IMG/VR virus record: IMGVR_UViG_3300045988_145033
Location: 1-64,000 of that record
Source of the DNA: a virus
Strand: one strand, 5' to 3'
DNA length: 64,000 nucleotides
A program made the position numbers and the translations under genes. The notes beneath the pieces were generated by a model. The model was not told the DNA's origin. It saw only the letters and a program-made list of their open reading frames with translations, and ran no database searches. Position 1 is the first letter of the stretch; every line of letters starts with the position of its first letter. Below, piece by piece: positions 9,950-64,000 of this stretch.

Positions 9950-10002
9950 TTACTTCATCTCCTTTTATCTTATTAAGCTATCAAGAAGTTAGATAAAATT
10001 AC

Positions 10003-49105: not shown

Positions 49106-49339
49106 CTATACCCTCCACATACTCATCATATACATTAAAGCAACAATAGAAAAACCTATTACAAATGCTATTCCTCTTGCTTTTCTTTTATTACCTTTTT
49201 TGATATGCTTTTTGTATCTTTTTATATTAAGTAGTACAGCATATTGTAGCATCACCATAAATATACCTGTCTTCATAATAGACGTGAATATAGTAGCGAT
49301 AACGTATTTTAAATAAGCATCACTCATTATCTTCATCAT
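49106..49339 (-). CDS. small membrane protein, 2 predicted TM helices (77 aa; holin-like?)
   Basis: hydrophobic segments + basic linker. Confidence 0.45.
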   Translation of the reverse strand: MMKIMSDAYLKYVIATIFTSIMKTGIFMVMLQYAVLLNIKRYKKHIKKGNKRKARGIAFVIGFSIVALMYMMSMWRV

Positions 49340-50822
49340 AATTAGAACCTCCTTTTTTATGAGTTATATCTATTTCTTTCCAGTCTTTGAATTCTTCATC
49401 AAAGAACTTATAAAGCTTTCTATAATATCTTTTAGTTTCAGAAAAACTCTTATCCACAGCTTTAATGTATATTCCAGTTTCTCCACCAACCCGTCCGTTT
49501 CTTCCTGTAGCTTGTTTAAATATCGAGCCCCCTGCATAAGTTTCCATATCTATTGTAAGTTTAATCTTAGATATATCAAGTCCTCTACCAATACTGTCAG
49601 TAATTGATATTATAAAAGGTTTTGTAAGAGCATTCGCTCTTTCTCCTTTTGGGAGTTCTGAATGAAACTCAGATACATGCTTTGCTGGGATATTAAACTT
49701 ATCCATTACCCATTCCTTTATAAGCTTACAATTTTCTATCTTACCTGTCATTATAACTATCTTATATCCCTTGTCCATTTCATATATAGGTATAGCGTGA
49801 GTTTTTATTATCTTCTCTAGTATATTAAAATACCCTTCCGATGCTATAGCTACAGCCATATGCTTATCAGGAACAAACTGTCCTTTGAAATTATAACAAG
49901 ATTGTCTTACTTTTTGTAAAGGTTTTGACTCCCAACCATAAACGTAAGCTATTCTATTTGGCTTTTCTGTATAAAACTCTTTACCATATTTTGGTATAGT
50001 TTTAATCATCTTTTGAAAAGCACTATCATCAAACTGTCCATTTTTAAATGTAGTTGCTGATAAATATAAGTTATATCTCACAGAAGTTGTAAAGTCTAGC
50101 TTTAGCATACTGTCTACTTCTGTATCAAACTCATCAAATATCTTAAGTCCTATTTTATTTTTAATACACCATTCAGCAACGAATGGAGAACCTTTTTGCT
50201 CTATTATAGAACGTAGAGTTGCGTGAGTGGTTACAAATACTTTATATCCTAAATCTTCTTCATAGGTAGATAAAAACCATTTAGAACCATTCATAGCACA
50301 CACGTATCTTTGACGAAGCTTTGTATGATTAGCAAATGAACCTTTCTCTCCTGCCCATTGATTTAAAAGAGTATTTGTCTTAACTAGAACCAGTATATTA
50401 CAACCAAGTTCTGATGCTATAGCAGTTGCTGTAAATGTCTTACCTCTTCCTGTAGGCATATCTATTATAACTTGAGTTTCCCCACGTCTAAATTCCTTTA
50501 AAGCTAGAGTTATAACTTTCATTTGCTCAGGAAACGGCTTTTTATTAACATTAAAGAATTTCTTATTATCACAAGGGAATGCAAGTCCTTTATGAATACT
50601 TCCATATACATTCAATTTATTCATAAGAAATGTATCTCCTATACCTCTTGGAACTCTTAAGTTATCAGGAGATAATAGATAACAAAATGGTTCTTTTTCT
50701 TCTGTGATATAGTTTACTGTCGATAAAGAATCCATTAAATCTTGAGCATAAAACATTTCTCTTTTCTTATTATTTTTATCAAATTCTATTTTATAAAAAG
50801 TGGTAAATTTAGTAATCTTCAT
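49320..50822 (-). CDS. SF2 (DEAD/DExH-like) helicase (500 aa)
   Basis: MPTGRGKT (motif I), FDEFD (II), SAT (III), QATGRNGR (VI). Confidence 0.75.
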   Translation of the reverse strand: MKITKFTTFYKIEFDKNNKKREMFYAQDLMDSLSTVNYITEEKEPFCYLLSPDNLRVPRGIGDTFLMNKLNVYGSIHKGLAFPCDNKKFFNVNKKPFPEQMKVITLALKEFRRGETQVIIDMPTGRGKTFTATAIASELGCNILVLVKTNTLLNQWAGEKGSFANHTKLRQRYVCAMNGSKWFLSTYEEDLGYKVFVTTHATLRSIIEQKGSPFVAEWCIKNKIGLKIFDEFDTEVDSMLKLDFTTSVRYNLYLSATTFKNGQFDDSAFQKMIKTIPKYGKEFYTEKPNRIAYVYGWESKPLQKVRQSCYNFKGQFVPDKHMAVAIASEGYFNILEKIIKTHAIPIYEMDKGYKIVIMTGKIENCKLIKEWVMDKFNIPAKHVSEFHSELPKGERANALTKPFIISITDSIGRGLDISKIKLTIDMETYAGGSIFKQATGRNGRVGGETGIYIKAVDKSFSETKRYYRKLYKFFDEEFKDWKEIDITHKKGGSNYDEDNE

Positions 50823-52967: not shown

Positions 52968-53240
52968 CTATCCATATAATTTTATATTTTTTACTATTGT
53001 TGATAATTGATTTTTAAATACCTCTTCAAAGTATTTACTGTCCTCTATATACTTTATAGTCTCATTATCTTTTATTACTGGTATATTTGCTAGTAATAGT
53101 CCTCTTTTAATAACAGCCTTATTTAAAAGGGATTTGACATTTTTACTCTCAACAGCAGATATCGCATCAGCAGGATTTTCATTTGCAATGAAAGATGCTA
53201 TGTGACACGCTATGAGATGTAATTTATCGTGCTCCATCAT
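52968..53240 (-). CDS. hypothetical protein (90 aa)
   Basis: ORF. Confidence 0.5.
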   Translation of the reverse strand: MMEHDKLHLIACHIASFIANENPADAISAVESKNVKSLLNKAVIKRGLLLANIPVIKDNETIKYIEDSKYFEEVFKNQLSTIVKNIKLYG

Positions 53241-54133
53241 TTAAGCCTCCTTGGTCTTTTCTTAGACATATAGAAATCTCCACGTATCACAGCTTCTCTT
53301 ATAGTGAGAGTATTATCAACTCTTGTCTTAACTGGTTCTTTAAGATAAGCAGTTAAAAGTTTTATATCCTCAGCACTATATAAAGATAATATACTTTCTA
53401 CCTGCTTACCAGTTAAATCACATTTTCCTATATTATCGAAAAATACTTGTGGAAATTTGGCTCTCGATATACCCTTTATATTAAAGATATACTTAGGATA
53501 TATTCTTGCCTTTCTATACGTTGCTAATTTTTTAATATGCTCCATATACGGAGCAAAATATTTACTTTCTTTTGATAGCATAGTATCACTTGGGTAATGC
53601 ACTTCTATAACTATTCTTGGGTCTATAGAATACATTTGTATAGTTTCATTGAATGAGACAAGTCTATCATCTAAAATGACAGCGTATTTCTCATCTTGCA
53701 GAACGTCCCAGTGCACTTTTTCTATGTTATCGTTATCTTTTTGTTTTATAGAGATTGATAACTCGTCTAAAATAGCCTCTCCTATAGCCTTTTTTACTTT
53801 GTTTTCTGGTGTTACAAACGAACGTATTCTCATACCCAAAGGTCTTTCTATAAGAGTAGATTGTAAAAGTTTATCTTGCTCATAAACTGGTTTAAATACT
53901 CTCATAAGAAATGCTTTGTGAGGATTGTAAGTTCCATCTCTTTCCTTTAAATATCTTGGACGACTATCAGCTATAGGCTCTCCATATACAGTTATTACAA
54001 GTCTTTCATCAAAGAATTTAAAAAGCTTCTCATCTTCTGGTACTTTTTCTATATAAGCAGGAGTATATCTCTCTTTTGTGTATTCAACTCTTGCTTTAGC
54101 TTTCGCTCCACTAAATTTAAGCAAACTTATCAT
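53237..54133 (-). CDS. hypothetical protein (298 aa)
   Basis: ORF. Confidence 0.6.
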   Translation of the reverse strand: MISLLKFSGAKAKARVEYTKERYTPAYIEKVPEDEKLFKFFDERLVITVYGEPIADSRPRYLKERDGTYNPHKAFLMRVFKPVYEQDKLLQSTLIERPLGMRIRSFVTPENKVKKAIGEAILDELSISIKQKDNDNIEKVHWDVLQDEKYAVILDDRLVSFNETIQMYSIDPRIVIEVHYPSDTMLSKESKYFAPYMEHIKKLATYRKARIYPKYIFNIKGISRAKFPQVFFDNIGKCDLTGKQVESILSLYSAEDIKLLTAYLKEPVKTRVDNTLTIREAVIRGDFYMSKKRPRRLK

Positions 54134-54137
54134 CTCC

Positions 54138-55886
54138 TTATAGCATATTAACTATGTACGCTTTCATTTGTCCTGCACTATCCATAAATCTACGTCTTAT
54201 CCCAGCCCAGTTTCTTGTAGGTGAAATCATATTCTTAAGTGATGCTAGCACATTAGGACCTGCAAATTTAGTCCAGTCAAGAAGCACAGCATTTGCTCCA
54301 GCAAGTCCACCAAGAATAGACATATATCCTACAGCGTTTAAAGGTGCAAGTCCATTATTGTGATGTGGTAGTGCTACAACTGGTGTCATATCTCTTACAG
54401 TTACAGTAAGTGTCATATCTGTCATAAGTCCCATACCTGTCATAGTCTTAGGGTCTACAGTAGCAGATAAGGAAGTTATCATACCTACGTCCATACTAGG
54501 TAAACCTTTTGAGTACATTCTACATAGAAATGGTGCAGAAAATCCAAAGTTACCCACAGAGTGTATAGGAAGTGCCATAGGTAATATATGAGCTAGAGGC
54601 TTTAATACGTGGAAAGCATAACCTTCGGGAGTCCCTTCAGCTGTTGCGAGTCTAAATTGAAGCTGGTGCTCTCTTGCATTAGATGAAGCATCTTTCCATA
54701 TATCAGGAACTATGGTTTTAATTCCCCATCTTTTTGATTTTAAGAAATTACTCCCTGTCATCTTTTGGTCTTTATTTGATACATCTTCTTCAGCATTTAT
54801 AGTTTCATAAGATTTACCAGTTAAGAATGCTAGTTCTCTTCCTAAATCTCCAAGTCCTCCAAATGTATTAAGTTTTGCTCCAAGTTCAGACTCTCCTGCT
54901 TGGTTATCAACACCTATCGCACTTTGAACAGGACCGTCGTGATAAAATGGTACAAATGATTGGAAACTTATTTGCTCTGTAAGCATAAGTTCAACCTCTG
55001 GGTTTCCTATAGCTCTATATAAAAGCTTACCTAAAGTATCTCCAGCTGACACCTTATCCCAATATATATCAAGAAGTGTAGAACCGGGTTTTCCAGTGTA
55101 AGCTGATGCCACCCTTGATTTATACGACTGAAGTCCCGCAAGAATTATAAGATGTTGCCATATAGCATTTACATATTTCCAATAAGTATTATTAGAGGGT
55201 CTAAATTCATAAAATCTCCCTTCTCCTTTTTCACCTATTTCTCCTTGTAGTTCAGCTGTTTTTTGCTCTGCATCTTCTGCATTATTAACAGCCGCATTTA
55301 AAAACGCATCTGATATCTTAGATGATATTCCGGGTAAAAGCATAGCTATACCGGGAGTAAATGTAACTATTTGTCCATTTGATAAGAAGTTATCAAGATA
55401 GGTTCTACCGAATGAAGCATTTGTATACGGTGGGTCATCAGTTACTGAATATTTAAAAGGTTCAGCCATAAGCCCATGAATACTAAAATTCGTTTCAGTT
55501 GGATTTTGTCCTTTACCTGATAAATCATCTACCGTTGAACGCTTTAAAGCTGTGTATAAATCTCCTCCACCAATTTGTGCTTTAAAAATCTTTGTAAAAT
55601 CACTTTGTGCTATTCCGGATAAGTTTTTAAATCCGTCTGTTGCTGTTGCCATTGCCGCAGTTACATTAGCTACAGCGGCTACGGCTGGACCACCAAGTAA
55701 ACCAGCCGCTTGAAGTCCTCCACTCATAGCTTGTGGTGATATACCACCAGCACTATTTGTATTATTATTTTTTCTTACAGATTTACCTAAAGATGAAGTA
55801 GCCGCTTTAACTCCACCTGCTATAGCACCCATAGGTTTATTTGCTCCGCCAGATTTATTTTTTAAACTAGAACCTTCGTCTAACAT
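54138..55886 (-). CDS. hypothetical virion-associated protein (582 aa), immediately downstream of giant gene
   Basis: Gly/Ala-rich N-terminus; RBS AAAGGAGG. Confidence 0.6.
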   Translation of the reverse strand: MLDEGSSLKNKSGGANKPMGAIAGGVKAATSSLGKSVRKNNNTNSAGGISPQAMSGGLQAAGLLGGPAVAAVANVTAAMATATDGFKNLSGIAQSDFTKIFKAQIGGGDLYTALKRSTVDDLSGKGQNPTETNFSIHGLMAEPFKYSVTDDPPYTNASFGRTYLDNFLSNGQIVTFTPGIAMLLPGISSKISDAFLNAAVNNAEDAEQKTAELQGEIGEKGEGRFYEFRPSNNTYWKYVNAIWQHLIILAGLQSYKSRVASAYTGKPGSTLLDIYWDKVSAGDTLGKLLYRAIGNPEVELMLTEQISFQSFVPFYHDGPVQSAIGVDNQAGESELGAKLNTFGGLGDLGRELAFLTGKSYETINAEEDVSNKDQKMTGSNFLKSKRWGIKTIVPDIWKDASSNAREHQLQFRLATAEGTPEGYAFHVLKPLAHILPMALPIHSVGNFGFSAPFLCRMYSKGLPSMDVGMITSLSATVDPKTMTGMGLMTDMTLTVTVRDMTPVVALPHHNNGLAPLNAVGYMSILGGLAGANAVLLDWTKFAGPNVLASLKNMISPTRNWAGIRRRFMDSAGQMKAYIVNML

Positions 55887-55945: not shown

Positions 55946-58900
55946 TTATATAGATTTTCCTTTACAAATTCTATCAATAAGTTTATAAAAGTCATCATTA
56001 GAATTCATACCAGAACTTCCCATTGTAACTGGAGTAGGGTTACCATTGACCGTAGTCATTACATTGTATCCATTTAGTGCAAGATTTGTCTTCTTACCAG
56101 TTACAGCTTCTATGAATGTAGCAAATAGCTTATTCATATTACGTAACTCTCCTAAAATAGCTTCAAGTAATTTAGTTTCACCATTTTGTTCCATACCTTG
56201 AGAACGATTTATGAATTTTACCAAGTTTTCATTTATTTCATTTAAAATACCAGTCTGAGTTTGACTATGTTTTGCTGATGCTTGTATACCAGCTTTTATC
56301 TTATCTGTAGATAAAGCAATAGAGTTTGATGATTTAGCAACACCATCATCACTACCTTTTCCAGATAAGTTCATAGTCTTTGTATATTGCTCTGCCGCAT
56401 TATATGTCATATCACGAGATACACGTCCATATCCTGCAAGAACTGGCTCAACCACTTTTTCTTTAAATGTACCATAAGCTCCTTTTATGATATCTACCAT
56501 AGAAGCAGTTTTCTTTGCAAGTTTTACAGATGCTTTTTCTTTGTATATCAAAATTGCTTTTGCCATACGAAGACGTTTGTCATTTACTGAAACTTGCTCA
56601 GATGAGTTCTTTTCCGGGTCATTTATATAAATCTTACCATTTACCATCTCTTTACCTATTATGAAATGTGGTGCACCAGTTGATGATACTGTAAGAAGTA
56701 TAGGAGAACGTCCGGCACGTAGTTCACTTACAAATCTTGCAAGTACCTTATCATTAAATATAACAGAACGTATTTTATGCTCAGCTAGTATATTTACGAA
56801 ATACTTCATAGGCGTACCAGCTTTAGGTGATGATTTCATAGCAACAGCTTTACGTACTAAATCTTCCATATTGTATCTTATCTTTAACTTATCAAGAAGC
56901 ATAGCCATAACAGCAGGACCACAACCAGCTTCTCTAAATCTAAGTCCTCCACCCATTCCAAGTTTATTCCACTTTCCTGAGTTTTGTGATACGTGTTTCA
57001 TAGGTCCAAAACCTTCGTTACCAGCTTTTAATCCTTCTTGTTGCTTTGCTGACGTTTTAACTTTTTGAGTTACGCTATATGGGTCAAAGGCATCAACAAC
57101 ATATCCGTCAAACCCCATAAATTGTGCTGCTTCTTTTGTAGACGGATATTTAGATGCTGAGAAATTAGCAACTTCTCTTCCTCTTACGTGTCCATCTCCA
57201 TCTTTGTCCATTCCGTGATTTGCTTTATATTCCGCTGAACCACGCGAATAAACTGGCTTATCTGGATGATATCCTAAAGACTTAGGATAATGTAAGTAAG
57301 AATATAAGTTATATAGGTTAGGAGGATATTTACCCAAGCCTTTTATCCATCTAGGTCCAACTCTTTTTAATTGCTCAAGTGGCGTGAAACTTCCCGGAAG
57401 TTCATTAGGTGCAAACCCCCAACCTTTTCTGTAACTCTTCATTACTTGGAAAAGTCCAGATGCTCCACCGTTACTATTATATGCGTCAGGTTGCCAAGTT
57501 GACTCAGAATAAGATACAGCTAACATATTTCTCGCAACATCTACTCCCCATTGAGAAACAGCATAATCCCACATTTCTTTCATTTGCTTCCTATATTGTG
57601 GGTTCTTAGCTTTTTGCATAAGCCCCATATTCTTAGTGACTCCAGTTATAACATTTCCACCACTAAAATCTCCTGAACTTGAATCTTCTGCTACAACATT
57701 GCCGTTTTCATCTAGGTTAAATCCTAAAGATGTTGCTAAATTTTTCACAGTAGCACCTATATCGAAGTTTTTGATAAATTCATATCTATCTCCAAATTTA
57801 GAAGCATTGTCATCATCTATCATAGCTTGCATATCAGATTTAGCTTTTGTAGCTTCTTGAGTTGTTGTATCAACTTTTGTAAGCTTACCGTCTGGAGTTA
57901 CAGGTCCAAATCCTTGATAAGCTCCATATCCGTCACTATCAGTTTTATATTTATCATACAACTTACTATTCTTTTTAGCTATGTCTTCTTTTTCTTTTTT
58001 ATCTTTCTCTTCTTGTTGCTTTTTAAGTTTTTCTTGATTTTCTTTTCTCTTCTTTGCATCTTCGTCACGTTTCTTCCAATAATCTGGGTCTTTTAAATCA
58101 TAATCGCTATCAGCATCTGGGTCATATCCATAATCAGTCTTATCAACATCACCATTTGCTTCTTCTTCACGCTTAGCTTTATATTCTTCATATTTGCTCT
58201 TACCCCATTCTTTTAATTCTTCTTCTTCTCTCTTCTTAGCTTCTTCTTTATCACTTTCTTCTTTATTAAAAGCTTCTAGTGCTTCTTTTGATTTCCATTC
58301 GGATTCATCAACACCAGATACCCATTCGTAGAACCACACAACCATATCATCTATAGGGATAGCAGCAAGCCACCATACTTTAGATGATGCTAGTCCCCAT
58401 AATAGTTCCACAAAACCTGATGCAAATTTCATACCAGTAGTTATGTAATCAGAACCTACGTTGAAATAATCTCTTGCGTGTCTCCAACCATGAATAAAAT
58501 CATATATTGCAAATATTCCGTCTACTATAGCTCCTACTGGTGGTAATGCGTAAGATGCAGAACGAGTAACATTTTTAGCTGTCTTCTTAGCGGCTTTCTT
58601 TGCAGCCTTTTTACTCATCTTTTTAGCAACAACTTCTATTCCGCCTTTCTTTAAAAGTTTTTCAGCAAATGCTTTAGTAAGCTTATAATTAAGAAGTTTT
58701 CTTAACATCTTTTCTATAAACTCTTTAAACCATTTACCAATAGCGGTTTCTGTTATTTGCTTTACTCCACGTTCAGCCAGATTTTGAGCACCTTTTCTAA
58801 ACGCTTCGTTTTTAAATAAACCATTTTTAGCTATTCTAAGTCCAGTTTGTTGAATATTATGAGTTACAGTTTCTCCAGTTCTTCCAGTAGAGTTTATAAA

Positions 58901-61900
58901 GTTTTCGTATTGTTGTCCATAAGAAGAATTAGCAAACGCAACAAGTGCTCCACCACCAACAAGTGCTCCTATTGCCGGAAGTGCTTTTACTATAGCTCCA
59001 CCCATAATCTTAGAACCAAGTCCTTGCATTCCAAGTTTTGTGAATATATTACCTAAGAATTTAGAACCTCCACCACCAGAACCAAACATAGATGCCGCTG
59101 CTCCAGCTATAGTTCCTAATACACCATTATCTTTCACTTGTTGTACTAAAGTTACCTTACCATCTTTATCCTTTTTCTCCTTATCTTTTTTGTCTTGTCT
59201 TTTATCAATGTCAGCATATTCTGCACCGTCTTTCATCTTAGGTGATTTACCTTTTCTTCTCTTTCCAGACATAGCAGATTTGAAGTCTTCTTTATATCCA
59301 AGCTTATTATACATAGATTCAGCATATTCTAAATCTACTGCACCAACAGCTTTTACAACTTCAACTACTCTTACATTATCTATTATACCGCCTTCAACCC
59401 AAACTTTATTAGTTCTATTCTTTCTACCAAATAGAATATTCCATACACCGGTTACTAAGTCTTTACCTCTTTGATATATCCAGTCAAATACCTTACCAAC
59501 TGAAGTTACAAGCCAAGTAATACCTCTACCTATCTTATCAAGACCTTTATCTATGATAGTTCCTATTCTATCAGCCGCACCCATAACTATAGCAGGAAAA
59601 TTAGATATAAGTTTCCAAGCAAGTCCAAAAGTAGCATTCCATAAAGTTCTACCGAATATCTTAATACCACCCCATATCTTGCCAGCAAACATTCTAAGTC
59701 CTAAAAGCATTTGAGTTCCCCAATACTTAATAGATGAGAATACCCCTTTTACGAACCCACCTATTCTTGAAAGCACTGGTAGTGCCATATGTTTCCATAT
59801 AGATTTAGCTATCCATAAAGGAAACTTAATAAACATAAGCTTCATAGCACCTAATGTTTGCATAGTTGCTGATACGACAGGTCTTACAAGTTTATTATAA
59901 AGTCCAGAAAGTAGAGCTCCCGGTAAAGCCTTAAGTCTTCTCCAACCGTTTTTGAATTTTTGTCCAAGCCAAGAGAAGTGCTTATTCTTTACATTCTTCG
60001 CACCAAAGCCGGGAATAGGTCCATATTTACGAACAAGAATTCTTTTAATATACTCAGCATTATATGCAAGAGATGAGGTTTGAAGATTTATAGTATCACG
60101 AAGTTTTTCAGCTTCTTCTAAATACTTCTTTCTCCAATTCTTTATAAGGATATAAAGTTCGGAACGTTTACCTAAATACTTAGCAAGAGCCGACCTTTGT
60201 GTCATATTCTTGTCAAAGGCTTGTATACCACCTTTTATCTTTTGAGCAACATTTACAACACCATCTCTCATCTTCTTAATCATAGATACCTTTATTGGAT
60301 TTCCATTCTCATCTAAAACTTCAGGTTCGTCTTCATTTGGGTCTTTTTTTCCAAATTTAGATTTAAGCCAACCTTTTATAGCGTTGACATAACCTTTCTT
60401 TCCTTCTTCTACATTTATACCTTCTTTGTGAAGAAATTCTTCAGTAGTTTCACCTTTCTTCAAAGCCTCGGCTTCAGGCATAGTTTTACCTATGACTTCT
60501 CCTATTTTATTTACATATGCTTTCTTTCCTTTTTCTAGCATATCCTTTATATTCTCATCTGTAGTAGATGAAACTACAGCTTCTTTAGGACCTACTTCCT
60601 CAGCTTTAGCCCCAGCTAACATAGTTCCAATAGTTATCTTTTCTTCATTTGTTAATGTCTTCCATTGTTTTTCTTTAAAGAATATCGCTTGCTTTGCGTG
60701 TGCTTCTAAAGTAGCAATATCCACTGTCATATCAGGTTTTCTATCAGGGTCTGCATATTCTACAGTTCCTTGAGAAGATATAAAGTATACCACAATATAA
60801 TGAAGATTATCAGTTTCAAAATCTGATAACTCTACTATTACACAATTTCCAGAAAAAGCACCTTTCATAAATGACATAAATGTACCAGCTTTAGGATTTA
60901 CAACATGGGTTGCATCTATTCCAAATTTTCTAGCGACGCTCATTATATATGAAGCTGGAACTCCATTTGTAGAACCTGTCCAACCAAATGATTTCTTAGT
61001 TAGATATTCAGGTTTTATAGAAAATCCTGTAGCACGAGATAAAGCCGTTGCAAGAGCTGATAGTCCACATAAAGTTCCATCTCCACCAATATTTGGTATG
61101 ACTTTACTTTTTATAGATTTCGCTATATCTTTTGCAACTCCTTTTAGATTAAGTGCTCCACTTCTTCCTTTTATACCCTTTCCTGATTGCCCTTCTTCTT
61201 CTTTAGCTTTGGCTTTTTGAGCTTCATCGACTTTAGCATCCGCTTCAGCTTTCTTCTTAAGATAATCAGCTTGAATTTCTTTACCTCTTTTCTTAAGTCT
61301 AAAAGCTTCGAGTCTTTCATCTAAAGTTTTATCTTTTACTTCTTGTACGTCTTGACCTTCCATACGTTTAGCAATAGCAGCCTTTTTAGCATCTTTTGCT
61401 CTCATCTTAAGTAAAAGCTTTTTATCACTTTCAGAAAACTCTGAAGCTTCTTGTACGTCTTTATCTGTCATACCTTCAGAACGCATATAAAGGTCTTCTT
61501 TACGTCTTGTAGCATTTTCATAAGCTTCAACATTTTTAACACCTTCTGGAGTTTTAGCTGTATGAGAAGCACTAAATGAAGCTCTTCTATCAGCTATATC
61601 GTCAGCGTCCGTTCTTCCAGTTACTAGAGTTCTAAACATTTTAAACGGAGCCGCAATTATTCTACCTATGAATTTAAACATTCCACCGAATATCTTTTTA
61701 AATACTCCAGCAATAGGGTCTATTACCTTTTCTTTCATAGTTTTAAAGAATGGTTTTACAAAGTCATTTGTAAATGAACCCGTAAGTTCTCCTTTTATAC
61801 CAGTTATAGTTTTAAATATACCAGAAGCTGTATTTGACATAAATTCCTTAATAGGAGTAAATGTTTGCGAAAGTGGCTTCCATATATCTTTTCTAAACCA

Positions 61901-63949
61901 TATAGCCATCTTTCTAGGAGCTTCTTTTATAAATCCAGTAAATCCTTTTGTAGCTTTTGTAAGTATTCCTTCTTTACCAGACTCTTTATCTCCTATAAGC
62001 CAAGTCTTTAAGTTTCCTAAGAAAGTTCCTTCTTCAGTTCCAAAAAGCATTTTTCTAAAACCTTTAGATTCCCCAGCTATAGATACAGCAAGTCCAGCAA
62101 GAGCCGCATTAACTGGTCCTATAAAACCAAGAGGTGTTGCAGCCGCAAGTATTCCAGAAAGTCCAGCAATAGCTCCACCTGTAACAAGTGCTCCTTTTGT
62201 AATTCTCATCATCTTAGCACGTGCTTCTTTAGCTTTTTCACTATTTCCAAATAATCTTTCAAATAAGTTAGACTTATAAGCATACACTCCAACTCCTAGA
62301 GCGAGAGCACCTAAAGCTAGAGGAGATGCAAGTCCTGTAAGTCCTATTATTGGACCAAACATTGACTTCTTCAAGAACTTGAAAGCTCCTATACCTGCCG
62401 CACCTATCATTGCGGCTTTTGATGCTTTCCATATAGTATCTTTATTATCTTCGTAAAAGTTCTTAGCTTTATCTTTCATATCTCCCATTTTTTCTTTAAA
62501 AGACTTAGCTGTATTTTCTACTCTTTCTTTCATTCTATCGACAGCTTCTGATTTACCAGATTCTATACCGTCAACAGTTCCATCATCTTTTAATTTAATA
62601 GAAGAAGCAACTGATGATACTGAATTTTTAGCATCTTTCCAAACAGACTTCGCTTTATCTATTTTTCCGTCAACGTTAATATCAGACCTTACTTGAAATC
62701 TATCTTTTAACTCAACTATCTTCTTTTTAAACCAGTTAGACGAATATATTATATCTTTAATTTCTTTTCTTATATCTTCGTCTTTCTTTTCTGGGTCTGT
62801 AAGTATTTCAAGTATTCTATCTTTATCTTTATCAGTCACATCGAATTTATCAAGTTCCATTTTAATAGATTCTATTTCTAAATTTCCGCCTATTATAGCA
62901 TCTATTGTAGCTTGGTGTCCTAGAATAGTATCAATAGAAAATACATCTGTATCCATCATATTTTTAAACCACTCTTTATCTTGAACTCCTATTCTTTCTC
63001 CAAGTTTAGTATTTCCTATATCAACTATAAAGTCCTTTATCTTATTTTTGAACATAGTTCCAGCTCTTCTATTATCTTTATAGAATTCATCTATAGATTT
63101 AATAGCATCTGGAGTTAGAGTTTCTCCTAATATATTTCCAACAAGTCCATCTTTATTCTTAAGAGATACCTTACCTTCATTCTTTAAAAGATATTCATAC
63201 TTAAACCCTAAAGATTCAAGTATCTTTTTCTTATCTTCTTCCGATACATTGCTACCGCCTCCAACTCCACCAGTTAGAAGTTGTTGAAATATAGCTTTAA
63301 GTCCTACGGCAGAACCTTCGTCTATAGAACCTGAGTTATTTAAAAGATGGATAACTCCATTATTTCTTGACTCTAAACTTTGCTCTCTAAAGAAATTATT
63401 AGAATCTCTTATCCAAGTTTCCATAGATTTATCAAGTGATGCGAACTGGTCGGCTCTATTTTTCTCAGCTTTATTCATCAAATCCACGAACTTATAAAAA
63501 TCTGATTTTGAAAGTTCATCAGACGATAAATTAAGATTTGATAGCAGTTGTCCGTAATCGTGTTCCTTGAAGTTAGTTAAAGTGTAACCCTTTTTAGATA
63601 GTTCTTCCATTACGATTTTAGTAAAATCATTAAGTCTTTGCTCATCTAAATTCTTCTTATCACCATCAGACATTTGAGATTTGAGCATTTCAGCTAGTTG
63701 TCTGTATTCGTACTTCATTGTAGGTCTATTATCTTCAAATTCTTTACGAACTGTAGATAATGTCTTAAACTGTCCTTTATTATAATCATACGTAGTTCTC
63801 TCATTTCCAGTTAAAGCTGAAGCAATAGATGATAGATATGTAGGAATTACTGTAACTATAGCTTCTCTTGTTATGCCATCGAAAAATACATGCTTTGATT
63901 TATCATACTTATCTGTACGAAGATTAGATTCAACGTCAGGTTTTATCAT
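55946..63949 (-). CDS. giant virion protein (at least 2667 aa), tape-measure-like, with two C39-like cysteine peptidase domains and a lytic transglycosylase (SLT) domain; frame open to window end so N-terminus may extend beyond 64000
   Basis: glycine-zipper TM segments; GTLCGLSALATAL...HYIVVYF and AGCGPAVMAMLL...PHFIIG (C39-like); SYSESTWQPDAYNSNGGASGLFQVMKSY (SLT). Confidence 0.5.
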   Translation of the reverse strand: MIKPDVESNLRTDKYDKSKHVFFDGITREAIVTVIPTYLSSIASALTGNERTTYDYNKGQFKTLSTVRKEFEDNRPTMKYEYRQLAEMLKSQMSDGDKKNLDEQRLNDFTKIVMEELSKKGYTLTNFKEHDYGQLLSNLNLSSDELSKSDFYKFVDLMNKAEKNRADQFASLDKSMETWIRDSNNFFREQSLESRNNGVIHLLNNSGSIDEGSAVGLKAIFQQLLTGGVGGGSNVSEEDKKKILESLGFKYEYLLKNEGKVSLKNKDGLVGNILGETLTPDAIKSIDEFYKDNRRAGTMFKNKIKDFIVDIGNTKLGERIGVQDKEWFKNMMDTDVFSIDTILGHQATIDAIIGGNLEIESIKMELDKFDVTDKDKDRILEILTDPEKKDEDIRKEIKDIIYSSNWFKKKIVELKDRFQVRSDINVDGKIDKAKSVWKDAKNSVSSVASSIKLKDDGTVDGIESGKSEAVDRMKERVENTAKSFKEKMGDMKDKAKNFYEDNKDTIWKASKAAMIGAAGIGAFKFLKKSMFGPIIGLTGLASPLALGALALGVGVYAYKSNLFERLFGNSEKAKEARAKMMRITKGALVTGGAIAGLSGILAAATPLGFIGPVNAALAGLAVSIAGESKGFRKMLFGTEEGTFLGNLKTWLIGDKESGKEGILTKATKGFTGFIKEAPRKMAIWFRKDIWKPLSQTFTPIKEFMSNTASGIFKTITGIKGELTGSFTNDFVKPFFKTMKEKVIDPIAGVFKKIFGGMFKFIGRIIAAPFKMFRTLVTGRTDADDIADRRASFSASHTAKTPEGVKNVEAYENATRRKEDLYMRSEGMTDKDVQEASEFSESDKKLLLKMRAKDAKKAAIAKRMEGQDVQEVKDKTLDERLEAFRLKKRGKEIQADYLKKKAEADAKVDEAQKAKAKEEEGQSGKGIKGRSGALNLKGVAKDIAKSIKSKVIPNIGGDGTLCGLSALATALSRATGFSIKPEYLTKKSFGWTGSTNGVPASYIMSVARKFGIDATHVVNPKAGTFMSFMKGAFSGNCVIVELSDFETDNLHYIVVYFISSQGTVEYADPDRKPDMTVDIATLEAHAKQAIFFKEKQWKTLTNEEKITIGTMLAGAKAEEVGPKEAVVSSTTDENIKDMLEKGKKAYVNKIGEVIGKTMPEAEALKKGETTEEFLHKEGINVEEGKKGYVNAIKGWLKSKFGKKDPNEDEPEVLDENGNPIKVSMIKKMRDGVVNVAQKIKGGIQAFDKNMTQRSALAKYLGKRSELYILIKNWRKKYLEEAEKLRDTINLQTSSLAYNAEYIKRILVRKYGPIPGFGAKNVKNKHFSWLGQKFKNGWRRLKALPGALLSGLYNKLVRPVVSATMQTLGAMKLMFIKFPLWIAKSIWKHMALPVLSRIGGFVKGVFSSIKYWGTQMLLGLRMFAGKIWGGIKIFGRTLWNATFGLAWKLISNFPAIVMGAADRIGTIIDKGLDKIGRGITWLVTSVGKVFDWIYQRGKDLVTGVWNILFGRKNRTNKVWVEGGIIDNVRVVEVVKAVGAVDLEYAESMYNKLGYKEDFKSAMSGKRRKGKSPKMKDGAEYADIDKRQDKKDKEKKDKDGKVTLVQQVKDNGVLGTIAGAAASMFGSGGGGSKFLGNIFTKLGMQGLGSKIMGGAIVKALPAIGALVGGGALVAFANSSYGQQYENFINSTGRTGETVTHNIQQTGLRIAKNGLFKNEAFRKGAQNLAERGVKQITETAIGKWFKEFIEKMLRKLLNYKLTKAFAEKLLKKGGIEVVAKKMSKKAAKKAAKKTAKNVTRSASYALPPVGAIVDGIFAIYDFIHGWRHARDYFNVGSDYITTGMKFASGFVELLWGLASSKVWWLAAIPIDDMVVWFYEWVSGVDESEWKSKEALEAFNKEESDKEEAKKREEEELKEWGKSKYEEYKAKREEEANGDVDKTDYGYDPDADSDYDLKDPDYWKKRDEDAKKRKENQEKLKKQQEEKDKKEKEDIAKKNSKLYDKYKTDSDGYGAYQGFGPVTPDGKLTKVDTTTQEATKAKSDMQAMIDDDNASKFGDRYEFIKNFDIGATVKNLATSLGFNLDENGNVVAEDSSSGDFSGGNVITGVTKNMGLMQKAKNPQYRKQMKEMWDYAVSQWGVDVARNMLAVSYSESTWQPDAYNSNGGASGLFQVMKSYRKGWGFAPNELPGSFTPLEQLKRVGPRWIKGLGKYPPNLYNLYSYLHYPKSLGYHPDKPVYSRGSAEYKANHGMDKDGDGHVRGREVANFSASKYPSTKEAAQFMGFDGYVVDAFDPYSVTQKVKTSAKQQEGLKAGNEGFGPMKHVSQNSGKWNKLGMGGGLRFREAGCGPAVMAMLLDKLKIRYNMEDLVRKAVAMKSSPKAGTPMKYFVNILAEHKIRSVIFNDKVLARFVSELRAGRSPILLTVSSTGAPHFIIGKEMVNGKIYINDPEKNSSEQVSVNDKRLRMAKAILIYKEKASVKLAKKTASMVDIIKGAYGTFKEKVVEPVLAGYGRVSRDMTYNAAEQYTKTMNLSGKGSDDGVAKSSNSIALSTDKIKAGIQASAKHSQTQTGILNEINENLVKFINRSQGMEQNGETKLLEAILGELRNMNKLFATFIEAVTGKKTNLALNGYNVMTTVNGNPTPVTMGSSGMNSNDDFYKLIDRICKGKSI

Positions 63950-64000
63950 AACAGACCTACCGAAAGTAGATAAAGTTGCATTAGATGATAAAGATGCAGT

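Follow-up and report, generated by a model that had tools for sequence, protein, structure and literature searches.

Which protein is encoded by the very long open reading frame (ORF) at the end of the viral DNA analysed here? The stretch comprises positions 1 to 64,000 of IMG/VR virus record IMGVR_UViG_3300045988_145033 (64,000 nucleotides (nt), hereafter the window), and the frame occupies 55946..64000 on its minus strand. We propose, with a probability of about 0.75, that the product of this gene serves a contractile-tailed Fusobacterium phage of ~179 kb both as tail tape measure and as tail lysin. Judged by sequence similarity, the protein is a member of a superfamily of giant tail proteins of large phages that encode an RNA polymerase (RNAP), with AR9 gp203 and phiR1-37 g083 as homologues and phiKZ gp181 and SPN3US gp239 as positional equivalents. 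A near-identical protein is already public, and the AR9 and SPN3US members of the family bear the annotation tape measure. That a tape measure can carry lytic domains is well known in general.

Extent of the giant gene

Translated from nt 64000, the frame holds 2,684 codons, and its sole stop lies at the end. The ORF list enters it as 55946..63949 (minus strand) with 2,667 amino acids (aa), counted from the first ATG. At a GC content of 34%, with a stop probability of 0.0845 per codon (one per ~12 codons), a frame of this length would be open by chance with a probability of ~1e-103, and all rival frames listed in 55946-64000 have at most 203 aa.

A large protein database contains a 3,029-aa protein (P0001) that is 100% identical across the window part. 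Its gene comes from a human oral metagenome, where it sits on a contig of 178,673 bp (L007), and the final 301 nt of the window correspond to L007:11036-11336 with 100% identity. On this contig the gene starts at position 10001, eight bases past AAAGGAGG, a canonical ribosome-binding site. Therefore, 345 codons (1,035 nt) lie outside the window and ATG 63949 encodes an internal Met; the codons before it (TASLSS...) indeed align with the JD-Fnp1 homologue (see below) from residue ~343 on. The window thus holds the C-terminal 2,684 residues, followed by the stop codon, of a 3,029-aa protein, whose mass would be 340 kDa in uncut form. Hereafter, window residues are counted from nt 64000, and full-length residues are window residues + 345.

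A preliminary description, made from the letters of the window, had reported a giant ORF of at least 2,667 aa, open to the window edge, and had suspected that the protein might be larger still. Both statements hold: the frame is unbroken to nt 64000, and the gene on the oral contig extends it to 3,029 aa. Instead of a stop just outside the window and a ribosome-binding site leading a start at 63949, the contig shows the real start 1,035 nt further on.

Host phage and its relatives

A tblastn search against deposited phages returned only four records, the Fusobacterium nucleatum phages JD-Fnp1, 4, 6 and 7 (174-180 kb), whose homologues share 75-78% aa identity over the entire protein. In these deposits, the gene is labelled 'papain-like cysteine protease'. 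JD-Fnp1 and JD-Fnp4 are reported to be myoviruses, whose tails measure 335 ± 5 nm and 300 ± 4 nm, respectively (PMC9670143). The JD-Fnp genomes and the window contain split multisubunit RNAP genes, a prohead core protease, a GroEL-like chaperonin, a tail sheath and scattered structural genes, a gene content which is the organisation of large RNAP-encoding phages. At ~179 kb, the Fusobacterium phages fall under the usual 200 kb threshold for 'jumbo' phages, yet they have the AR9/phiKZ-type hallmark set, including the pair of a tape-measure gene and a gp182-like gene.

Proposed assignment as a tail tape-measure protein

Homology of the N-terminal module is the first argument. Within this ~430-aa module, the most conserved part is a core at full-length residues 361-440 (HVFFDGITREAIVTVIPTYLSSIASALTG..TTYDYNKGQF; 63716..63955, minus strand) with the pattern FDG(I/V)TR..(V)IP.YL....L(S/T)G....YDY.KG.F. 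In the family alignment, this core and the second C39-like module described below are the best-conserved parts of the protein. Based on BLASTP, the N-terminal ~425 aa match phiR1-37 g083 (E=9e-15) and the core motif matches AR9 gp203 (E=7e-10); a segment scan against PHROGs connects the N-terminal segment to phrog_26249 (E=3e-11). The core is also shared with Madawaska gp086 and with the metagenomic proteins P0105-P0107, and transitively with PhiPA3 gp213. In the distant relative P0107, the first 480 aa match phrog_26249, and its N-terminus retrieves AR9 gp203, PBS1 gp95, phiR1-37 g083 and Vibrio BONAISHI.

The locus provides the second argument. Directly downstream of the giant gene lies a partner gene (54138..55886, minus strand). 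Its 582-aa product has homologues in the virion structural protein g085 of phiR1-37 (E=1e-12), in SPN3US gp238 (E=1e-9), in PhiPA3 gp214 (= phiKZ gp182) and in the product of the ORF neighbouring the P0105 gene (E=9e-16). This family is spread through phiKZ-like phages, including PhiPA3, and in those phages the homologue comes right after a giant gene encoding 1,900-2,400 aa with a C-proximal lytic domain. Third in the conserved order is a RusA-family resolvase gene (53237..54133, minus strand; 298 aa, with the RusA domain limited to residues 51-178). The order of giant protein, gp238/gp182-like protein and RusA recurs in AR9, phiR1-37 and two metagenomic contigs of ~240-265 kb, and the giant gene and its gp238/gp182-like partner are also paired in PhiPA3, Kc263, SPN3US and Madawaska. 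A Holliday-junction resolvase has been reported in virions of Bacillus phage BpSp (PMC4870245). Experimental data exist for relatives: SPN3US gp239 ('tape measure protein') is missing from tailless particles together with the essential gp238 (PMC5105663), and phiKZ gp181 is a virion protein for which muralytic activity was measured (PMC5380687).

The third argument is size. In the reassembled JD-Fnp1 genome, the 3,026-aa ORF alone exceeds 1,484 aa, the length of the next ORF (an RNAP subunit), and it is the only long ORF with several transmembrane-like segments. On the classical tape-measure scale of ~0.15 nm per residue, a tail of 300-335 nm needs ~2,000-2,230 aa. Family clades which are only 29-40% identical all keep 2,900-3,090 aa, as expected of a ruler. 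For phiR1-37, a tail of 383 nm (PMC13030884) and a g083 of 2,553 aa give exactly 0.150 nm per residue.

A number of observations weigh against this assignment. For JD-Fnp1 and JD-Fnp4 the ratio is 0.111 and 0.101 nm/aa, respectively, or ~0.13 without the ~480 aa of enzyme domains; the measurements for these phages and for phiR1-37 come from different laboratories. Since the ratio of tail to protein is not constant across the family, a ruler role is consistent with the data, not demonstrated by them. The whole protein retrieved nothing from PHROGs at E≤0.01, and the matches to 'tail length tape measure protein' PHROGs, obtained with isolated segments only, are weak: within an amphipathic block described below, phrog_991 was found at E=2.7e-4, phrog_58 at E=4.9e-3 and phrog_1272 at E=0.011. 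BLASTP against PhiPA3 gp213, a giant protein of the phiKZ type, gave no direct similarity, and in a comparison of ten sequences the link to it is transitive only, N-terminal and of low significance, passing through P0107 and AR9. In phiR1-37, g083 lacks the 'phage structural protein' note of its neighbours. Finally, a DNA polymerase gene and a gene annotated as portal lie upstream of the giant gene, where no chaperone pair is found; the canonical tape-measure context, which has a frameshifted chaperone pair on one side and tail-tip or baseplate-hub genes on the other, holds only downstream, with the tail-associated gp238 homologue, in genomes whose structural genes are scattered.

The inconstant tail length per residue is also the first point for an alternative in which the protein is a tail- or baseplate-associated lysin, acting as a cell-puncturing device, and another mechanism fixes the length of the tail. 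Along these lines, phiKZ gp181 was described as a needle-like puncturing device (PMC5380687), and Madawaska has two tandem paralogues, labelled 'tape measure protein' and 'tail lysin'. However, both Madawaska paralogues have the N-terminal region, JD-Fnp1 encodes one such protein only and none of its other ORFs could span 300 nm, and both the phiR1-37 ratio and the length held across diverged clades agree with a ruler. We therefore regard a lysin without a ruler function as unlikely.

In the Fusobacterium phages, the giant gene follows the annotated portal gene, which would suit a head-packaged ejection or 'polyvalent' protein leaving the capsid with the DNA, similar to MuF or to T7 gp16, which also has an SLT domain. 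Although large multidomain injected phage proteins are known (PMC7824862), this explanation is very improbable, as the portal label has no PHROG support, the adjacency to it is not kept in AR9, phiR1-37, PhiPA3, SPN3US or the metagenomic relatives whereas that to gp238/gp182 is, SPN3US gp239 is absent from tailless particles, and neither the window protein nor the JD-Fnp1 N-terminus contains a MuF or other head-protein domain. Where the preliminary description spoke of a 'tape measure or ejection protein', homology, locus and size thus favour the former, and an ejection protein packaged in the head is disfavoured.

As a tape measure, the protein would fill the lumen of the tail tube in several copies during assembly, and its long, mostly non-globular stretches would set the length of ~300-335 nm, as the family and the tail length suggest. 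The C-terminus would be located at the baseplate end, beside the gp238-like protein. Upon contraction of the sheath, the protein might be expelled C-terminus first, by analogy to T5 Pb2, TM4 Tmp and phiKZ gp181. The SLT module, identified as a domain, would then cut the glycan strands of the peptidoglycan, and the C39-like modules, with their fold and catalytic residues, would most likely cut peptide stems or cross-links of the wall, so that together they would form a virion lysin with two activities, comparable to actinophage lysin A. The glycine-zipper and amphipathic blocks may insert in the membranes and line a conduit for the DNA.

Enzymatic modules

The SLT-type lytic transglycosylase is located at full-length residues ~2470-2660 (57056..57628, minus strand), with catalytic Glu2511 (nt 57503-57505) in an ES motif. 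The SLT motif ESTWQPDAYNSNGGASGLFQV spans window residues 2166-2186 (nt 57443-57505), and its Glu-Ser is invariant in 17 aligned family members. PF01464 scores 24.7 bits on the isolated segment (cut-off 21.3) and a borderline 21.0 bits in the whole protein. Among PDB sequences the module matches the phage lytic transglycosidase 9udh (E=3.7e-8), and its AlphaFold (AF2) model resembles the folds of 9udh (template modelling (TM) score 0.71) and MltF. Inside the module lies an EF-hand-type loop, DKDGDGHVRGRE (window residues 2265-2276; 57173-57208, minus strand), whose pattern DxDxDGxVxxxE is invariant across the family clades. The loop is present in 9udh too, and a profile search with this stretch draws calcium-binding proteins.

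Two C39-like peptidase modules flank the transglycosylase at a distance and just downstream of it, respectively. The first (C39-1) covers full-length residues ~1310-1445 (60701..61108, minus strand) with Cys1323 (nt 61067-61069), His1412 and Asp1429; its motifs are CGLSALATAL (window residues 978-987; nt 61040-61069), HYIVVYF (1067-1073) and ADPD (1083-1086). The second (C39-2), the best-conserved enzymatic part of the protein, covers full-length residues ~2690-2840 (56516..56968, minus strand) with Cys2705, His2790, Asp2806 and a conserved SQ upstream; here, the motifs are CGPAVMAMLL (window residues 2360-2369; nt 56894-56923), PHFIIG (2444-2449) and INDP (2459-2462). PF03412 (Peptidase_C39) scores 24.5 bits on the isolated C39-1 segment and 28.6 bits on C39-2 (cut-off 22), and 41.8 bits in two stretches on the whole protein. 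PF13529 stays under its cut-off in the window protein and is strong in relatives, and the Pfam family C70 gives a weak match. Cys, His and Asp of both modules are invariant in the 17 aligned members, down to ~29% identity, and those of C39-2 are kept in distant relatives as well. The two modules also align with each other in hhalign over the full domain (probability 97.4%, E=1.5e-11, 18% identity), with the catalytic columns in register.

The AF2 models reach a mean predicted local distance difference test value (pLDDT) of 72 for SLT plus C39-2, and a pLDDT of 77 with a predicted TM score (pTM) of 0.76 for C39-1. According to these models, both modules have a papain-like C39 fold. The closest folds are ComA-PEP (5xe8; TM score 0.72-0.73, target-normalised), PCAT1, LahT and the C39-like domain of HlyB, at 12-22% identity, followed at a greater distance by papain-like toxins, staphopain and AvrRpt2. 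A C39-1 profile gave no match among PDB sequences. In a viral structure library, the SLT and C39 models matched lytic transglycosylases, peptidases, lysins and one tail tape measure. The layout read by the preliminary description, with one C39-like module in the middle, another near the C-terminus and an SLT motif between them, is therefore confirmed by Pfam, by invariant catalytic residues and by the modelled folds, and in both peptidase modules the alignment retains the Cys/His dyad.

The residues ahead of the catalytic Cys, where C39 peptidases have their oxyanion-hole Gln, differ between the modules. In C39-2, an invariant (S/N)Q is located ~22 residues ahead of it. In other clades, C39-1 shows N/T-Q-N ~19 residues ahead; in the JD-Fnp-like clade of the window the Gln is missing and Cys/His/Asp are kept. 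The missing Gln is a point against the mechanism proposed above, and in this clade C39-1 may be catalytically altered, as far as the alignment tells.

Possible role of the C39-like modules

The Pfam scan found no ABC (ATP-binding cassette) transporter domain in the giant protein. Conserved G-[GAS] dipeptides are few, and at none of them do positions -4/-7/-12 follow the hydrophobic leader pattern by which C39 substrates are recognisable. With neither a transporter nor a leader context, the modules are referred to as 'C39-like' and not as ComA-type processing peptidases.

What they cut is best answered, at roughly even odds, by the peptidoglycan: by analogy to other phage lysins, they would be wall peptidases. 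This role is favoured because lysin A proteins of actinophages are known to use C39-like domains as lysin modules (PMC3314691; PMC12821328), because the Fusobacterium protein has no other wall peptidase that could pair with the SLT module, and because C39 modules always sit among wall hydrolases. Two points speak against it. Among solved structures, the nearest folds belong to leader-peptide proteases and protein toxins and not to wall hydrolases, and many relatives have C39 beside NlpC/P60 or M23 wall peptidases, so that C39 may do something else.

This something else might be maturation of the protein itself. The modules would then be built-in proteases which cut the giant precursor, in cis or in trans and at assembly or ejection, into a ruler, pore-forming segments and a lysin. 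Such a role would concern no part but the C39 modules and does not conflict with the identity as a tape measure. Proteolytic trimming of tape measures occurs in other phages, from lambda gpH to H* and in T5 Pb2. The nearest solved folds (ComA, PCAT1, LahT) are peptide-processing domains, and in this branch of the superfamily C39 is the constant enzymatic feature, often beside dedicated wall peptidases, and the wall hydrolases are swapped. In addition, a G-A site conserved family-wide, ...MVDIIKGA/YGTF (56480-56515, minus strand; full-length 2840-2853; the slash marks the possible cut), follows directly after C39-2 with a predicted helix before it, its possible cut falling at full-length 2852/2853, and three further G-G/G-A sites are conserved in the family, at full-length 1117/1118, 1882/1883 and 1898/1899. 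It is possible, if speculative, that cleavage in cis at the former frees the C-terminal ~177 aa. Double-glycine sites beside the catalytic Cys (IGGDGTLC, GMGGGL) were dropped as cleavage candidates, as they are not conserved in other clades. Against self-cleavage stand the lack of the leader pattern at the conserved sites and the relatives without any C39 (AR9 gp203, phiR1-37 g083, PhiPA3 gp213, Kc263), which appear functional. We consider it a tentative second choice.

A third role, which we hold to be doubtful, would be that of host-directed effectors: one or both modules would be sent into the periplasm or cytoplasm before the DNA and cleave host defence or envelope proteins. Among the folds resembling theirs are those of the papain-like protease toxin 9l5u, the CdiA-CT toxin domain in 8ssk/8ssm and AvrRpt2 (6hqz), and the weak C70 match of the window protein has a counterpart in 5 of 13 relatives with Peptidase_C70. 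However, this is a generic clan-CA fold likeness at 10-18% identity, neither an immunity gene nor a target speaks for it, and cell-wall hydrolase domains always surround the modules. That the paired modules form a self-processing system, with the tape measure as a polyprotein, or else proteases injected before the DNA against host envelope or defence proteins, can be given a minor share of the probability, and cleavage of the wall is preferred over both.

A literature search found no paper mentioning C39 modules in tape measures or jumbo-phage tail proteins. The 'C39' in a preprint on the Jabs mycobacteriophage refers to cysteine residue numbers and is irrelevant to C39 peptidases.

Non-enzymatic regions of the protein

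Between the N-terminal core and C39-1 lies a conserved hydrophobic block (full-length 841-1140; 61616..62515, minus strand), in which glycine-zipper, transmembrane-like segments are followed by an amphipathic region rich in F, K and G. It is 65-86% identical to clades that are ~38% identical overall. Hydrophobic Gly/Ala-rich segments were located at window residues 551-569, 603-642, 1665-1687 and 1818-1836. The several glycine-zipper segments noted in the preliminary description are thus present, with the small-xxx-small patterns concentrated at window residues 540-650.

Downstream of C39-1, a W/F/K/G-rich amphipathic hydrophobic block covers full-length residues ~1660-1870 (59426..60058, minus strand). 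This is the block with the weak tape-measure PHROG matches, which were obtained with full-length 1660-1960 and, weak as they are, count in favour of the tape-measure reading; its counterpart in P0105 matches phrog_58 with E=2.5e-7. Next come KVWVEGGIIDNVRVVEVVKAVGAVD (full-length ~1875-1905; 59321..59413, minus strand), a short motif with strong conservation, and a second hydrophobic region rich in Gly/Ala and Trp (window residues ~1620-1870; 58391..59143, minus strand), to which the transmembrane-like segments 1665-1687 and 1818-1836 belong. This last of the hydrophobic blocks is joined to the SLT module by a poorly conserved, extremely charged linker with 62% K/R/D/E (window residues ~1880-2000; 58001..58363, minus strand); near the N-terminus, outside the window, there is a comparable stretch that is acidic and rich in Ser. 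Poorly conserved charged stretches are found, for instance, at full-length 440-840 and 2215-2350. The C-terminal tail of ~189 aa (55949..56515, minus strand), after the conserved ...MVDIIKGA/YGTF site, is expected at the tail-tip end by analogy to other tape measures.

Surroundings of the gene and annotation of the JD-Fnp genomes

Just past the window edge, the giant gene is separated from the 805-aa gene upstream of its start by a spacer with a GC-rich hairpin, ggtaggcgaaagcctacc (L007:9927-9945), and a run rich in T behind it. This sequence suggests a terminator, so the pair of tail genes possibly forms its own transcription unit. Several JD-Fnp1 annotations look wrong. The 'Cas system-associated protein' corresponds to a ResIII/DEAD helicase at window positions 49320-50822, and the 'RNA polymerase subunit alpha' entries are apparently beta/beta' fragments.

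Distribution of the architecture

A combination of two cysteine peptidases and a transglycosylase in a tape measure or ejection protein of this size had been called unusual. A HMMER search with a C39-2 profile against 1.84 billion representatives does not support this, with 2,924 matches at E≤1e-3 and 795 at E≤1e-10. Among the best 150 representative clusters, 141 have at least 2,000 aa (median 3,580, maximum 6,056), a local hidden Markov model recognises the N-terminal core module in 128 (residues ~1-500), and 92 contain two or more C39 regions; the SLT type of the window protein is found in 7/150. In a set of 13 diverse representatives, C39_2 is present in 12 and NlpC/P60 in 6, and the glycosidase is Phage_lysozyme2 (6), VgrG3-like (3), T4-type lysozyme (1), glucosaminidase (1) or SLT (1). 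P0105 (3,463 aa, on a 236.6 kb contig) and P0110 (4,305 aa, on a 264.5 kb contig) have the same gene neighbourhood. Based on these counts and the shared neighbourhood, the giant tail protein with dual C39 is a widespread, largely metagenomic class, of which the Fusobacterium clade is a variant with SLT as the glycosidase and C39-1 in mid-protein. The layout as such, in which an N-terminal module is combined with hydrophobic blocks, with C39 in one or two copies and with a C-proximal glycosidase, occurs in hundreds of representative clusters, and a protein with 75-78% identity had already been deposited for the isolated phages JD-Fnp1/4.

A partial protein of 2,403 aa from a Fusobacteriaceae metagenome-assembled genome (P0104), named 'C39 family peptidase, partial', has C39-type Cys motifs at residues 1328 and 2342 and matches only 11% of the query, with 26% identity. 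It probably represents the tape measure of a related phage or prophage that was binned with its host.

Implications

If the assignment is right, the 'papain-like cysteine protease' of the JD-Fnp phages is to be re-annotated as a tail tape-measure and lysin protein, and the 582-aa gene that follows as its conserved tail partner. The giant tail protein, the gp238/gp182-like protein and RusA tie the ~180 kb Fusobacterium phages to the AR9 / phiR1-37 / phiKZ group of RNAP-encoding large phages. C39 modules, often two of them, occur in most of this very large superfamily of giant tail proteins, with the wall, the protein itself and host proteins as possible substrates. F. nucleatum, whose sacculi contain peptidoglycan of the lanthionine type, is of clinical interest, and both the SLT and the C39 modules are candidates for enzymes directed against it.

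Comparison with known systems

A close counterpart is phiR1-37 g083 ('putative tape measure tail fibre protein', 2,553 aa). It has the N-terminal module, repeated amphipathic F/K/G-rich stretches and an SLT domain at ~85% of its length, compared to 2470-2660 of 3,029 residues in the window protein; a peptidoglycan glycosidase at ~75-90% of the length is a trait of the family which the window protein shares. phiR1-37 is likewise a long-tailed myovirus with a homologous virion structural protein and RusA downstream. In contrast, g083 has no C39, is ~480 aa shorter, and is separated from g085 by an endolysin gene. AR9 gp203 / PBS1 gp95 ('tail tape measure protein' / 'lysis domain protein', 1,925 aa, phrog_26249) share the N-terminal core and a C-proximal glycosidase, and AR9 has the order giant protein, virion structural protein, RusA. 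However, AR9 gp203 has a VgrG3-like lysozyme instead of SLT, lacks C39, is 1,100 aa shorter and belongs to a phage of a Gram-positive host. The 'gp203' of a Goslar cryo-electron microscopy preprint is a coincidence of numbering, and no tape measure is discussed there. In phiKZ gp181, PhiPA3 gp213 and SPN3US gp239 (2,237-2,372 aa), the locus upstream of gp182/gp214/gp238 and the C-proximal lytic domain (SLT in PhiPA3) are the same, whereas C39 modules and direct BLAST similarity are lacking.

Staphylococcus phage Madawaska encodes, upstream of a gp182-like gene (L013:1733-13626), a tandem of ~2,000-aa proteins, 'tape measure protein' 087 and 'tail lysin' 086. Besides the N-terminal region, these share a 55-aa stretch with 96% identity, and they look like the result of a duplication rather than a split. 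An origin of the 3,029-aa protein by fusion of two such genes was rejected, since the N-terminal region is present in each of the Madawaska proteins and the two are tandem paralogues.

Outside this group, T5 Pb2, TM4 Tmp and the TMP of S. aureus phiIPLA35 are rulers which carry wall-degrading and membrane-active parts as well. They are much shorter, use M23, Rpf-like or muramidase domains and are encoded in the canonical order of chaperone, tape measure and tip; the likeness is one of principle. The C39 domains of ComA, PCAT1 and LahT have the same papain-like fold (TM score ~0.7 to ComA-PEP) and Cys/His/Asp triad, but the giant protein has no ABC-transporter fusion and no evident double-glycine leader substrate. 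The C39-like 'N5' domain of mycobacteriophage lysin A and that of Gordonia lysin A are examples of C39-like domains used in phage wall lysins. A further likeness is found in the metagenomic giants P0105, P0107, P0110 and ~800 clusters, which have the N-terminal module, glycine-rich hydrophobic blocks, one or two C-terminal C39_2 domains, a glycosidase and the gene neighbourhood in common with the window protein. They differ in that their glycosidase is mostly Phage_lysozyme2 or VgrG3-like, that NlpC/P60 or M23 is often present, and that both C39 domains are usually located in the last third, whereas the Fusobacterium clade carries C39-1 at ~43% of the length.

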